Shown here one piece after another: positions 31,671 through 39,455 of a stretch of 64,000 nucleotides of DNA. Below the pieces are notes generated by a model. It worked only from the letters and a program-made list of their open reading frames with translations. It was not told the origin of the DNA and made no database searches. The stretch lies in the sequence record NC_014662.1. The stretch is one strand, 5' to 3'. Positions within the stretch are counted from its first letter, which is position 1. Each line of letters begins with the position of its first letter. Made by a program: the position numbers and the translations under genes. Source of the stretch: Enterobacter phage CC31.

Positions 31671-31967
31671 TTAACTAAACGGGTCGTGGAGCTTATTACC
31701 GACACGACGGAACACTTTAGCTGCAAATTTATTGGAAGGGTTATCAACCATGACTTTGCGCATGTGACCGGTCGCAACTGTTCGAGCAGCCTTATAACCA
31801 GCAATATTATCTTTCAAAGTAATTCGACCTTTTCCTTTAGGGTCATCAATGGTCACTTTGTAAGTTCCCATATCTTCGCCAGGCTTAATTTCTTCAATCC
31901 AGATATAACCACCTGGGACTCGCTTTTGTTCAGCGGCTTCAGTAATAAATTCGTTGTAGGTTTTCAT
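31671..31967 (-). CDS. internal head protein (IP) with capsid-targeting N-terminus
   Basis: 98 aa; N-terminus MKTYNEFITEA matches the T4 IP capsid-targeting sequence; flanks denV as ipII/ipIII do in T4. Confidence 0.7.
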   Translation of the reverse strand: MKTYNEFITEAAEQKRVPGGYIWIEEIKPGEDMGTYKVTIDDPKGKGRITLKDNIAGYKAARTVATGHMRKVMVDNPSNKFAAKVFRRVGNKLHDPFS

Positions 31968-31975
31968 TTTAATCC

Positions 31976-32392
31976 TTAGTTGTAAATAGCCTTACCATAA
32001 TGTTTATACCACTTAGGCCGTTGAGCAATTTTTTCGTCCAGACGTGCTTGAGAAATTTTAAGAGCGTCAGAAGTTGGAATGTAATCATTACGCCACTCGA
32101 CCGGAATATCACTAATGTCCTGGGCAGTTGTGTCCTGGATTTTAAAACCTCGTTTTAAACATTCAGCAATAATGTTGATTTGGCGTTTATGCAAGAACTC
32201 AAGTTTATCATAAAAGAAAGTAACATGACCTGTACCTAAAATGAAAACCGAAGAGATTTTAAAATCCTTAAGCTTTTTACCATTTTGAACATGCTTACGA
32301 ACGGCACCAAAAACACGTGGCAATTCACGATACTCAGCCATAAGATGTTGGTCGGCCAGTTCAGATACTAAAGTTAAGTTAATGCGTGTCAT
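31976..32392 (-). CDS. denV: DenV endonuclease V (pyrimidine dimer DNA glycosylase)
   Basis: 138 aa; [34 protein letters not shown]...[10 protein letters not shown] nearly matches T4 endo V. Confidence 0.95.
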
Positions 32393-32418
32393 TTTTAATC
32401 TCCGTTTGTTTGGTATGA

Positions 32419-32452
32419 GAGTATCATAACATGGACAAACGGAGATGTAAAC
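32419..32452 (-). promoter_or_regulatory. early promoter for denV
   Basis: Minus strand GTTTAC then GATACT-type -10 within GGTATGAG dyad, upstream of denV ATG 32392. Confidence 0.45.
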
Positions 32453-32742
32453 TACTTTCTAGTCAAAGATTTGATTTTTCCTACAAGTTTATCTTTCTTA
32501 ATGCCTTTATGATAGTCTTTACCTACCATCATGAAATAAGTTCCAGTAGTAGGGTCAAAGTTAACAGACACACGAGTACCATTAACATCGATATCACGTT
32601 GATTTATAACACGACTTACTTTACCGAATTCAGCGGCTAGAATAGTTTCAATTTCTTCTGCGCCTTTAGTAGCGGCCGCATAAAGTTCTTTGCCAGACAT
32701 TTCACGTTTAGCTTCAAACATAAATTCATTATAGGTTTTCAT
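32452..32742 (-). CDS. internal head protein (IP) with capsid-targeting N-terminus
   Basis: Track ORF trimmed to [11 protein letters not shown] start at 32742. Confidence 0.65.
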
Positions 32743-33223
32743 ATGCTTTCCAAGTACCTGTTTTAAATGTTGCAATCACGCGTTTAGCACGATTTGGTGT
32801 CTGACGATACCACTTGGAATTAGCAAGCTCTTTTGCAGCTGCTTCCCATTGTTTTGATTTAAGCAGACGCATTGACGCTGGGAAACTAGCTACACCTGCT
32901 ACACCCATCTGAAACACCATATTAATAAGTGCAGCACGACGAACTCCATCAAGTACATCATATACTGGTTTTAATACAGCATTTCCGAGAATCCCTCGAG
33001 TTGCTTTATCGACGTCTTTCGCAAAAATAGCTTCTGCTTCAGCTTTTGTGATTTGACCATTACATGGGCGTCCCACAAGCTTATCAAGTTCTCGTTTAGC
33101 AACATCAAGAGAAGGGTCACGTGTCAAAAGGTGACCGATACCGATTGTCCAAAAACCTTCGGTATCTTTATAGATTTTAGAATCGTATCCTTCATCGATA
33201 CGAAGCATGCCAAAAATGTCCAT
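32729..33223 (-). CDS. e: lysozyme e (endolysin, T4 lysozyme family)
   Basis: 164 aa; [12 protein letters not shown]...[15 protein letters not shown]...[15 protein letters not shown] strongly matches T4 lysozyme including catalytic E11/D20 context; AGGAGG RBS. Confidence 0.95.
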
Positions 33224-33256
33224 GAGGACCTCCTATCAGTTGATAGGAGTATTTAT

Positions 33257-33736
33257 TTAGCATTCCCAAAGAGCATCTTGAATGACCTTTGGATAAAGTT
33301 TCTGCATAACTGAGAAAAGACTTGGACCCATTACTACATTCCACATGCGCGGATGAATCAAAGCAAAAGCATCAATCTCCGGGAATTCATTTCCGTCTTC
33401 ATCTGTATGATATGCCGTGCAAATACAATCTCTGAATTGAGAGTGTTCCACTGGATGCATGTATTGGAAAAGATGTATATCTTTATTGCTAGCATAATCA
33501 TGACGACCTAGGTCAACCAGTAAACTCTGGTCGTAATCGACAAAGCCGGTTTCTTCACGGCATTCGCGAATAGCAGCTTCAATAGGTGTTTCACCTTCTT
33601 CAATATGGCCCTTTGGAATATCCCAGCGTGATGGCCCACCGCCTAATCCAGAATTAGTCACTCTTCCCATGAATAGTTCGTAGTCTTCGGTAAAGAAGAT
33701 AATTCCTGCAGATACTTCTTTAATTTTCTTACTCAA
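33257..33736 (-). CDS. nudE: NudE Nudix hydrolase
   Basis: Nudix box GHIEEGETPIEAAIRECREETG; position after e as in T4; start codon uncertain (TTG in track). Confidence 0.8.
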   Translation of the reverse strand: MSKKIKEVSAGIIFFTEDYELFMGRVTNSGLGGGPSRWDIPKGHIEEGETPIEAAIRECREETGFVDYDQSLLVDLGRHDYASNKDIHLFQYMHPVEHSQFRDCICTAYHTDEDGNEFPEIDAFALIHPRMWNVVMGPSLFSVMQKLYPKVIQDALWEC

Positions 33737-33963
33737 ATTTCACCCCAACTAATTTCACGAAGTCTTTGCATAATTGACTCAACTTCTTCAATCATATCTT
33801 CGTCAGAATCAAACGAACCTTCAACCATCCAATCAGAAATTGGAGTGAACATTTCCAGGCCCGTGGACAGACGATTACGAATATCATCAACTGATTCATT
33901 GTCGTTGAAGGAGTACAGGTAAGAATCAGCCGATTCAGATTTAACAAATACCGCAATACTCAT
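33733..33963 (-). CDS. hypothetical acidic protein
   Basis: 76 aa ORF. Confidence 0.35.
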   Translation of the reverse strand: MSIAVFVKSESADSYLYSFNDNESVDDIRNRLSTGLEMFTPISDWMVEGSFDSDEDMIEEVESIMQRLREISWGEI

Positions 33964-34271
33964 ACCTTTTCCTCTAAGAAGTCAGACAGTTTAAAATCTT
34001 TACGGTCCATCAGACCATAGTGAATGTTCTTCAGCGTATCGTACATGTCCCAGTACTTTTCTTTTAGCATATTACCAAATGGTGGAATGTAAAGCTTATC
34101 CCATTTGGCAGCTAACTCACCGTTGCGCAGTTCTCCTGGAACATTTTCAACGATACGTAAAACTTTAGTTGCAACCTCATAATCGGATGGCGGAATCCAT
34201 CCCCAATTATGATGTACTGAACCGTTAATTTCGCCATTCAGCGAAGTAAAAATTGTAGCTGGACAACTCAT
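33960..34271 (-). CDS. hypothetical protein
   Basis: 103 aa ORF. Confidence 0.4.
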   Translation of the reverse strand: MSCPATIFTSLNGEINGSVHHNWGWIPPSDYEVATKVLRIVENVPGELRNGELAAKWDKLYIPPFGNMLKEKYWDMYDTLKNIHYGLMDRKDFKLSDFLEEKV

Positions 34272-38110: not shown

Positions 38111-38115
38111 GAAAT

Positions 38116-38475
38116 TTATTTAAGAACTGTTGAGTTCATCGATTTAACCAAGAAAACTTGGTGTGGTGAACGAAGTGAACCTTCAATAGTGCGATGTTCT
38201 GGAAAATTGGTTGAAGTCTGAAAACCAGCTACACGGTAACCTTGCTCAGTCCATCCTAAAAGGATACCAACCATACAGCCAGAATATTTTCCGCTTTTAT
38301 CCAAAGCTACAATATCACCAGGAGCAATTTCATTACCCATTGAATCAGGCTTAATCCATTGTGGAGTAACCAGTTCTATAGGTATATTTATACCGCTTGA
38401 AAAGCTGTAATATTCGTCTGAACGTAAGCCCTGAATGCTTTTAAAGACTTTATGCCAAGTTTTACTGATGCTCAT
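38116..38475 (-). CDS. hypothetical protein
   Basis: 119 aa ORF immediately downstream (minus) of... upstream neighbour of tRNA cluster. Confidence 0.4.
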   Translation of the reverse strand: MSISKTWHKVFKSIQGLRSDEYYSFSSGINIPIELVTPQWIKPDSMGNEIAPGDIVALDKSGKYSGCMVGILLGWTEQGYRVAGFQTSTNFPEHRTIEGSLRSPHQVFLVKSMNSTVLK

Positions 38476-38701
38476 AATGTTCTCTCGCAGTGTTTTGGTG
38501 AATCAACGATAATTCATCGAAGATTGACTTCATTGCATTTTTCACAAAAATTTTTTCAGAAGGCTCCATCGACGTATTGTTGATGATTCTCGCCATTCGT
38601 TCTTTAAGCTTCTTTTTCCGATTCCGGACCGTCTCCTTGGAAGCGGTCCTCATGTGAGCAAGATTAGTCATCATGTTCCGTCGATAGATTAATAATAACA
38701 A
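38462..38701 (-). CDS. hypothetical basic protein
   Basis: 79 aa ORF. Confidence 0.35.
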   Translation of the reverse strand: MLLLIYRRNMMTNLAHMRTASKETVRNRKKKLKERMARIINNTSMEPSEKIFVKNAMKSIFDELSLIHQNTAREHYEHQ

Positions 38702-38717
38702 GTAGCTCTTTAAGCAT

Positions 38718-38915
38718 TTAACCGCGTTTATACGCGTGATGAATCAAAATACCAAGTACACCACAAGAAACTATAACGCTTTTAATAAAAGTTAAAACAA
38801 CGCCAGTAGCAACGCCGATAAGAATCCAGTCAAACTTATTCATCGGAGAATCGACATCATAAGTTTTCTTAACCCATGCTTTAGCTTTGGTGTACAGTTC
38901 TTTAATTTGGTTCAT
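38718..38915 (-). CDS. hypothetical small membrane protein
   Basis: Track ORF trimmed to ATG 38915 (MNQIKELYTK); one TM helix. Confidence 0.35.
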   Translation of the reverse strand: MNQIKELYTKAKAWVKKTYDVDSPMNKFDWILIGVATGVVLTFIKSVIVSCGVLGILIHHAYKRG

Positions 38916-39081
38916 TTGCAATTTTATCCATAACGAATGAAATGATACCAGCAACGAGTGTAAGTACTACGCTACTGATGAGTTCAGAATTTGAAAGGAA
39001 CGGCCATCCGAAGATTGAAGTTCCAAGTGCTCCCAGGGTTACTACAGTAAAGATGTTTCCGATGATTTCGCAACGTTTCAT
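38902..39081 (-). CDS. hypothetical small membrane protein (59 aa, below track threshold)
   Basis: ATG at 39081 preceded by GGAG RBS and the duplicated regB-type promoter/leader; hydrophobic MKRCEIIGNIFTVVTLGALG... Confidence 0.35.
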   Translation of the reverse strand: MKRCEIIGNIFTVVTLGALGTSIFGWPFLSNSELISSVVLTLVAGIISFVMDKIANEPN

Positions 39082-39108
39082 TTTTAATCTCCTTGTGTTG
39101 ATAGGGCT

Positions 39109-39138
39109 ATAGTATCATAGCCCTCAAGGAAAGTAAAC
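39109..39138 (-). promoter_or_regulatory. early promoter, near-identical copy of the regB promoter/leader
   Basis: ttgttgatagggctatagtatcatagccct...aaagtaaac repeated at 29438-29480 and 39091-39138. Confidence 0.5.
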
Positions 39139-39146
39139 GGCTAAAA

Positions 39147-39455
39147 CTATTTTATTCCGCGCGATGCAATTGTGTTCTGTCGTTTAACACCAGTTTGTTT
39201 AAAGTCATGATTGTCGATTTGATCAGTACGAGCAACGCCAAATGATGATTTGATCTTAGCTTTAGAGCCTTTAGTTATAGAAACAAACATCTCAGAAGAG
39301 CCTTTCTTAAAGTCCGAGGCGGATACTTCAACGCCGTTCTTAGCAAGTGACTTCAGAATTGCCTCTGCATACTCATCATCAAGACTTGCTTGAGTATTAA
39401 TGACGAATGTCTTTGGCGCAGTAGCTTCGTTGATAAATTCTTGATAGGTTTTCAT
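39147..39455 (-). CDS. internal head protein (IPI-position) with capsid-targeting N-terminus
   Basis: 102 aa; [11 protein letters not shown] capsid-targeting sequence; adjacent to 57B as ipI is in T4. Confidence 0.7.

Follow-up and report, generated by a model that had tools for sequence, protein, structure and literature searches.

Three small genes of Enterobacter phage CC31 combine a T4-type capsid-targeting leader with unrelated bodies

Within a 64,000-nucleotide stretch of the genome of Enterobacter phage CC31 (NC_014662.1; hereafter the window), three small genes, which we call IP-A, IP-B and IP-C (the last a copy of Ip7), open with the leader, or capsid targeting sequence (CTS), of the internal proteins (IPs) of phage T4 and continue into bodies that are unrelated to one another. 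By analogy with T4, their products are very probably packaged into the phage head as CTS cargo, and an anti-defense role for them is rather probable. The explanation that we favor, and with similar restraint hold to be the likelier one, is that they are packaged, processed by the prohead protease gp21 and injected together with the DNA as nuclease inhibitors; the assignment of type IV restriction enzymes of the GmrSD family specifically as their targets is more tentative.

The shared N-terminus takes the form MKTY(N/Q)EF-(I/M)-x-E-A, with the Glu10-Ala11 junction present in all three proteins. A six-frame scan with strict and loose patterns (GTG and TTG starts included) found no further leader-bearing open reading frame (ORF) in the window, and no other N-terminal 7-mer recurs among its 146 ATG-initiated ORFs of at least 60 amino acids, which excludes chance as the source of the shared leader. 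The initial annotation had placed the three ORFs at the right coordinates and had noted their common MKTY(N/Q)EF...EA start, which is indeed found in every one of them and is exclusive to them within the window; the strand, however, is minus and not plus for all three genes, and plus-strand translation at the same coordinates is meaningless or filled with stops. The frame of IP-B can be extended to an upstream TTG at 32775, yet the MKTY methionine is the start in every homolog. Once cut after Glu10, the predicted mature proteins would be of similar size and charge (approximately 9.8 kDa with an isoelectric point (pI) of 9.9 for IP-A, 9.6 kDa and 9.7 for IP-B, and 9.9 kDa and 9.65 for IP-C), a basic character resembling that of T4 IPII and IPIII.

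The leaders of the window align with those of T4 ipII and ipIII in both protein and DNA, where ATGAAAAC.T....GAATTTA is invariant, and T4 IPI starts with MKTFKEF...ITE-A (the hyphen here and below marking the gp21 cut). Suppressor analysis of the IPIII leader has assigned targeting mainly to residues 4 and 7 and processing to residues 8 and 10, with gp21 cleavage following (L/I)-x-E (PMC9026906). The capsid-targeting residues Tyr4 and Phe7 are present in IP-A, IP-B and IP-C alike, as are the processing residues Glu10 and a hydrophobic residue 8, and the gp21 motif at positions 8-11 is an exact fit in IP-A (ITE-A) and IP-C (INE-A). The match to the IPII and IPIII leaders, the position of the genes at ip loci and the membership of IP-C in the Ip7 family together support the capsid-targeting role that the initial annotation had ascribed to the leader.

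Gene order leads to the same placement. Judged by nucleotide similarity, the window belongs to a Karamvirus-like relative of T4: the best megablast matches to positions 31000-40200 are Klebsiella phage KaAlpha, Enterobacter phage PG7 and their kin (91-93% identity over 58-59%), and positions 38700-40200 are 99.7% identical to PG7. Along the direction of transcription, the first region reads nudE, e, IP-B, denV, IP-A and a vs.8-like gene, and the second reads gene 1, 57A, 57B, IP-C, a trna.4-like gene and seven tRNAs, with IP-A, IP-B and IP-C oriented as their neighbors. The T4 orders are e-ipIII-ipII-denV and 57B-ipI-trna.4, and the correspondence puts IP-B and IP-C in the two ip loci of T4; comparison with T4, PG7, PEi20, JS98 and Kosakonia 305 gave the same ip-locus position. 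IP-A comes right after denV and occupies a slot that both T4 and PG7 leave empty.

T4 IPII and IPIII are hence like the genes of the window in their near-identical 10-residue leader, the e-denV slot, small size, basic character and gp21 site after Glu10, and unlike them in their mature bodies, which have no detectable similarity, and in the length of IPIII, which is twice as long. T4 IPI/IPI*, a GmrSD inhibitor with a structure solved by nuclear magnetic resonance (NMR), shares with IP-C the 57B-trna.4 slot and the proposed course of packaging, processing and injection to block a nuclease. Among more distant systems, the inner-body ejection proteins of phages phiKZ and SPN3US are similar in that a prohead protease cut after Glu removes the targeting propeptide of ejected cargo; however, these proteins have a different leader and an S/A-x-E motif, are much larger and have no sequence relationship to the proteins described here.

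Each of the three proteins also belongs to a protein family over its full length. Residues 1-97 of IP-A match positions 1-105 of 117 in the hidden Markov model (HMM) of phrog_3966 (E=2e-23), a family listed as "unknown function" in PHROGs. IP-A is 95-96% identical to PG7_127 (96% at the amino acid level) and 46-53% identical to homologs in many Escherichia phages (48.5% to "ip10" of VR25), with 188 phage records matching over at least 80% of the query; a few members of the family, which includes RB69ORF124c, are already annotated as ip10 or "internal head protein" (VR25, CJ20, ADUt). Unlike the PG7 copy, which lies between e and denV, the IP-A gene of the window lies downstream of denV. IP-C is a full-length match (E=1.8e-42) to phrog_2667 ("internal head protein"), is 100% identical to its PG7 counterpart and 92% identical to T2 Ip7, has matches in 282 phage records and belongs to a family whose members carry the source name "Ip7 protein". 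It is another copy of Ip7, without material difference from the Ip7 of T2, RB15, RB32 and the many Tequatrovirus, Karamvirus and Klebsiella phages that have one. The gene has carried its name since the 1990s, and a literature search on the function of its product found nothing.

IP-B, by comparison with these two, is essentially undescribed, a rare family that is new solely as a further member of the T4-type internal proteins. It matches phrog_27873 over positions 1-95 of 95 (E=3.8e-59) and is found in just eight phage records, among them Edwardsiella phages PEi20 and PEi26 at 75% identity (PEi20 gp126) and JS98, JS10 and MN04 at 33%. The family comprises seven clusters at 90% identity in an index of 5.8 billion proteins and, when 1.84 billion representative proteins were searched exhaustively by profile, only two genuine clusters at 50% identity; 53 of its 96 positions are invariant. 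Public assemblies hold no exact copy of IP-B, and the nearest one, at 98% identity, is carried by a Logan contig. The IP-B profile search also returned long repeat proteins (589-3837 amino acids, E down to 3e-18) that we judged to be artefacts; the two inspected in full are tandem repeats whose score adds up many weak matches to motifs of the "IDIDVNG" type. Searches of Pfam, NCBIfam and the PDB gave no relatives of IP-A, IP-B or IP-C: the Pfam and NCBIfam hits to CsgH, Multi_ubiq, AbiJ_NTD3, PrgH and MreC (E=0.01-0.16) fall far short of the curated cut-offs and are noise, and weak partial matches to GlmU, PGK and DARPins in a PDB sequence search were dismissed.

Behind the leader, the three proteins part company. 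BLASTP of residues 12 to the end found no similarity below E=1 among IP-A, IP-B and IP-C or between them and T4 IPI-III, so that homology of the mature bodies to IPI*, IPII or IPIII was not found. Cross-matches to PHROGs (IP-C to phrog_3966, E=1.7e-4; IP-B to phrog_2667, E=6.5e-3) might have been taken for remote kinship, which vanishes once the leader is removed; since hhalign on the bodies alone, run with alignments of 15, 9 and 23 sequences, yields probabilities of just 0.1%, 0.1% and 6.5%, the cross-matches are driven by the leader. Indeed, many PHROGs families match the three proteins over residues 1-15 only. Predicted structures point the same way. The AlphaFold2 model of IP-B (predicted local distance difference test, pLDDT, 85.5) runs helix, five strands, helix and resembles a frataxin-like sandwich, for which Foldseek returned only the homologs of PEi26 and MN04; that of IP-C (moderate mean pLDDT of 66, about 80 in the core) has a ferredoxin-like beta-alpha-beta-beta-alpha-beta topology with generic matches to ACT and RRM folds and a disordered basic tail at residues 83-102. 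The predicted topologies of IP-B and IP-C thus differ, and together with the BLASTP and hhalign results they uphold the view, already put forward in the initial annotation, that the bodies are unrelated. Its further description of them as hypervariable cargo is fair: among the matches listed in a scan of IMG/VR with the leader pattern, there were at least 131 distinct leader-bearing products (35-610 amino acids, from at least 119 stretches) in at least 57 body clusters (BLASTP E<1e-4) behind one leader, most of them basic (pI 9-11).

Comparison with related genomes locates the points at which such bodies have been exchanged. Against PG7, homology of approximately 92% ends at 31661 and restarts at 32711, where the leader region of IP-B has its last nucleotide. 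The denV allele in between is 74% identical to that of PG7, compared with approximately 92% in the flanks, and 88-90% identical to that of the CIP9/IME523/Kosakonia-305 group; PG7 has no counterpart of the IP-B body, and its copy of IP-A (PG7_127) is on the other side of denV. Taken together, denV and IP-A match the CIP9/IME523/Q7622/Kosakonia-305 group, in which the order is e, IP-D, denV, IP-A, at 82-90%. This mosaic of denV against PG7-like flanks indicates that the e-denV-vs.8 region arose by recombination between two Karamvirus/Kanagawavirus lineages. The alignment with Kosakonia 305 breaks off at exactly two points, 32457/32458 (three bases past the stop codon of IP-B) and 32719/32720 (within the leader), so that relative to this phage only the body of IP-B has been replaced. 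IP-B stands beside, or takes the place of, other leader-bearing genes of PEi20, JS98 and Kosakonia 305: IP-D and the IP-B homolog stand side by side in PEi20, and JS98 has a remote IP-B homolog at the other locus, after 57B. There, JS98 (NC_010105) carries two leader ORFs without RefSeq annotation, at 1712-1921 (69 amino acids, GTG start, MKSYKEFLTEA...) and at 2001-2294 (97 amino acids, 33% identical to IP-B). The e-IP-B-denV-IP-A arrangement of the window itself recurs on a Logan metagenome contig at 97% DNA identity.

The second locus has a comparable history. The segment 39067-39457, which comprises ip7 and its 3' flank and begins two nucleotides ahead of the ATG, has 87-89% nucleotide identity to T2, RB32 and RB15, while the rest of a 1.5-kb query of the ip7 region has no megablast match to these phages and the flanking 57B and gene 1 are just 72-75% identical to T4, which suggests from nucleotide identity that the ip7 cassette moved comparatively recently between genera. 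At both loci, in five phages and across several genera, the 3' flank contains GTTTAC, 17 nucleotides and TGATACTAT, an early-promoter-like block, together with the GGAG ribosome-binding site (RBS) of the next gene, and the flank of IP-B is identical to that of the unrelated IP-D gene in Kosakonia phage 305. Because the leader and this 3' flank are both shared, each variable body is bracketed by two conserved blocks. Going by these alignments, the bodies act as cassettes between a 30-33-nucleotide leader and an early-promoter/RBS block and have been swapped among T4-like phages and between both ip loci. Conservation of the 3' block may simply reflect promoter function, and the block would provide homology arms for exchange as well. 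Coordinates are collected in table 1.

Table 1. Coordinates of the internal-protein genes, their predicted leaders, cassette flanks and adjoining genes in the window
Feature	Position	Strand	Description
IP-A	31671-31967	minus	98 amino acids, N-terminus MKTYNEFITEAAEQ; denV-vs.8 slot; phrog_3966
IP-B	32452-32742	minus	96 amino acids from ATG; e-denV slot; phrog_27873
IP-C (= Ip7)	39147-39455	minus	102 amino acids; 57B-trna.4 slot = T4 ipI slot; phrog_2667
Leader (CTS) of IP-A	31938-31967	minus	codons 1-10 MKTYNEFITE, predicted gp21 cut before A11
Leader (CTS) of IP-B	32713-32742	minus	Met at position 8 instead of Ile/Leu; predicted cut before A11
Leader (CTS) of IP-C	39426-39455	minus	10 residues, then A11; alignment with T4 leaders
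3' flank of IP-B cassette	32393-32451	minus	TTTACA, 17 nt, TATGAT with upstream TG; GGAG RBS of denV
3' flank of ip7 cassette	39082-39146	minus	GTTTAC...TGATACTAT block; GGAG RBS of trna.4-like gene; within 39067-39457 segment
Gene e (T4-type lysozyme)	32729-33223	minus	upstream of IP-B, overlaps its start; PF00959 on collinear Logan contig
denV (endonuclease V)	31976-32392	minus	between IP-B and IP-A
57B homolog	39452-39910	minus	upstream of ip7

We hypothesize, by analogy with T4, that the leader of each protein binds the prohead scaffolding core (gp22, gp67, gp68), whereby the protein would be enclosed, and that gp21 then cuts after Glu10 to free the mature body inside the head, which in T4 holds roughly 360 copies of each internal protein. 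The mature body would lie packed among the DNA, leave through the tail with it at infection and thereby reach the host cytoplasm ahead of any phage gene expression, where it would stoichiometrically block a pre-existing host defense nuclease. The likeliest targets are uncharacterized GmrSD/BrxU type IV nucleases directed against hydroxymethylcytosine (hmC) DNA in Enterobacter, Klebsiella or Escherichia, and each of the unrelated bodies may be specific for a different variant of the GmrSD/BrxU family. The proposal has a published precedent. T4 IPI, which the initial annotation had cited as an injected anti-restriction protein in agreement with the published view, blocks as IPI* the GmrSD of E. 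coli CT596 (PMC3012670); Ip1, Ip2 and Ip3 are inhibitors of three different GmrSD variants, one each and without cross-protection, the targets of Ip2 and Ip3 having been identified since 2025 (PMC12373910); and T4 requires IPIII to infect ECOR17, a function that host-expressed IPIII retains even if it lacks the CTS (PMC9391042). Gene 42, dCTPase, denB and alc are present in Karamvirus genomes (PMC12115623), and DNA of the hmC type is therefore expected here. In contrast to Ip2 and Ip3, IP-A, IP-B and IP-C have no assigned GmrSD target.

Several observations weigh against this proposal. Ten further ip genes, including ip4-ip10, had no reproducible effect when tried against GmrSD systems, and an initial signal for ip7 with CLS_011 failed to repeat (PMC12373910). 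A search for virion proteomics of the three proteins found no report. The structural matches of the models are to generic folds that give no functional clue. The gp21 site of IP-B is MFE-A, with a non-canonical Met at P3 in place of Leu or Ile, which makes the efficiency of its processing uncertain; position 8 is I or L in six of seven IP-B homologs, and Met occupies it in eight of 130 leader-bearing ORFs among the matches listed for the IMG/VR sample. In tblastn searches, the genes for the gp21 protease and the gp22, gp67 and gp68 scaffold proteins were not found in the 64-kb window; on the other side of the balance, the closest relative, PG7, encodes gp20, gp67, gp68, gp21, gp22, gp23 and the Inh protease inhibitor. 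Finally, none of IP-A, IP-B and IP-C has a canonical late promoter (TATAAATA) immediately before it, so that late expression would have to arise by read-through from upstream.

Possible sources of such read-through exist. The TATAAATA sequence at 42868-42875 marks a possible upstream unit for late read-through. Just upstream of e, at 33224-33262 (minus strand), stands a AATAAATA box, which differs at a single position from the late promoter of T4 (TATAAATA), and it is followed by a hairpin (CTCCTATCA-ACTG-TGATAGGAG) that sequesters the GGAGG RBS of gene e; this layout we take to be the early/late translational control arrangement of T4 gene e. Late read-through from the box into IP-B, denV and IP-A is plausible. 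For translation, the ATG of IP-B lies 14 nucleotides inside the 3' end of e behind a weak Shine-Dalgarno sequence, IP-A starts 8 nucleotides after denV with the Shine-Dalgarno sequence AAGGA, and the ATG of IP-C overlaps the 57B stop codon as ATGA, through which its translation is probably coupled to that of 57B; its overlap with e would couple IP-B in like manner.

The three proteins could also be injected inhibitors of threats other than GmrSD, such as McrBC-like and other modification-dependent nucleases, type I or III restriction-modification, BREX, RecBCD-type exonucleases or abortive-infection sensors of Enterobacter, Klebsiella or Edwardsiella. This we regard as unlikely, even though the failure of ip4-ip10 (ip7 included) to inhibit eight active GmrSD variants reproducibly would be expected under it, as would bodies unrelated to those of Ip1-3 and the occurrence of the IP-B family in phages of the Edwardsiella and Enterobacter type, whose hosts differ in their defense repertoires; the region moreover carries an anti-defense gene of a different class, the Acb2/Tad1-type sponge described below. 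However, a negative panel of eight variants is weak evidence because the GmrSD family is extremely diverse, every internal protein with a known target hits a GmrSD variant, and, given the hmC-pathway genes of Karamvirus, the obvious first-line threat is that from type IV enzymes.

A second alternative, slightly less credible still, grants packaging and gives the proteins a mainly physical role, as basic counter-ions that aid DNA condensation, packaging or ejection, or assembly of the prohead core, with the diversity of the bodies reflecting weak constraint. All three have 15-17 lysines and arginines per approximately 88 residues and pI values of 9.65-9.9, and most leader-bearing bodies among the matches listed in our survey are equally basic; lysines of internal proteins contact DNA phosphates in solid-state NMR (PMC3012670), head assembly is aberrant in T4 IPIII- and IP0 mutants (PMC9026906), and in the Ip7 model a disordered, basic C-terminal tail extends from an RRM/ACT-like fold. 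Against a merely polycationic function, conservation within families is considerable (the 53 invariant positions of IP-B; 92% identity of Ip7 across genera) and a folded structure is predicted for both IP-B and the core of Ip7, which together favor specific surfaces over generic polycations. In addition, conservation of the ip7 cassette across genera exceeds that of its flanks, and all three T4 internal proteins have specific GmrSD targets.

The last alternative, that one or more of the ORFs are decaying or silent cassettes whose leader is kept for the overlap with gene e, for recombination homology or for translation initiation, draws on the rarity of the IP-B family, its Met8, its weak Shine-Dalgarno sequence and its start inside e (by which the first 14 nucleotides of IP-B are constrained), but it is very improbable given that none of the three ORFs is interrupted or frameshifted, that their lengths are typical of IPs and their conservation in several phages runs from end to end, that IP-B has a confidently predicted fold, that Met8 is shared with other leaders of the survey and that e-IP-B-denV-IP-A is retained in an independent metagenome contig.

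Several neighboring features of the window deserve a record of their own. A 93-amino-acid ORF at 29708-29989 (minus strand), 1.7 kb from IP-A, scores 59.8 bits (cut-off 27) against PF24729, the Acb2/Tad1 hairpin domain, and is a vs.4-type cyclic-nucleotide sponge of the anti-CBASS/Thoeris family; it adjoins a GrcA-like glycyl-radical ORF at 29989-30351. The tRNA cluster at 37064-38016 (minus strand) has seven genes (Gln, Met, Asp, Asn, Glu, Lys and Ile), unlike the eight of T4, with gaps of 120-240 nucleotides at 37221-37340 and 37417-37658. Between this cluster and a group of putative small membrane ORFs lies a conserved 305-amino-acid ORF (35713-36630, minus strand) with DUF7277 and DUF7275 domains (E=4e-27 and 3e-77). 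Four ORFs of 112-131 amino acids at 34627-34965, 34949-35302, 35305-35679 and 36660-37055 (all minus strand) share a terminal F-I-x-x-C-R motif followed by basic residues and have no Pfam match; the first three are small, hydrophobic, overlapping and arranged in tandem, and the four may be paralogous small membrane proteins of the e.2-e.5 region.

What the initial annotation reported is correct and its interpretation is sound, for a system that is well known, and the window accordingly adds nothing new in principle. It does supply a test set of three genes (Ip7, an ip10-like gene and a member of a rare family) for hosts of the Enterobacter and Klebsiella type, at a time when all three T4 internal proteins have GmrSD targets and Ip4-Ip10, along with dozens of unnamed leader-bearing families, are orphans. 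We know of no phage counter-defenses other than internal proteins that are already there as protein at the moment of DNA entry; for that reason they would determine host range wherever nucleases act ahead of phage gene expression. The exchange of a body alone, resolved to the base pair from leader to stop codon, is useful for the engineering of cargo delivery and for leader-based mining of inhibitors. We further propose, as a conjecture that leans toward the doubtful, that at least one of the three proteins (the best candidates being IP-B, for its rarity and its frataxin-like predicted fold, and Ip7, for its spread across genera) inhibits a defense other than GmrSD and that the ip slots are a dedicated architecture for cassette exchange. 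If true, a non-GmrSD target would add a new pair of inhibitor and target, the inhibitor entering as protein alongside the DNA, and a dedicated exchange architecture would let T4-like phages swap their cargo body by body, between loci and between genera.

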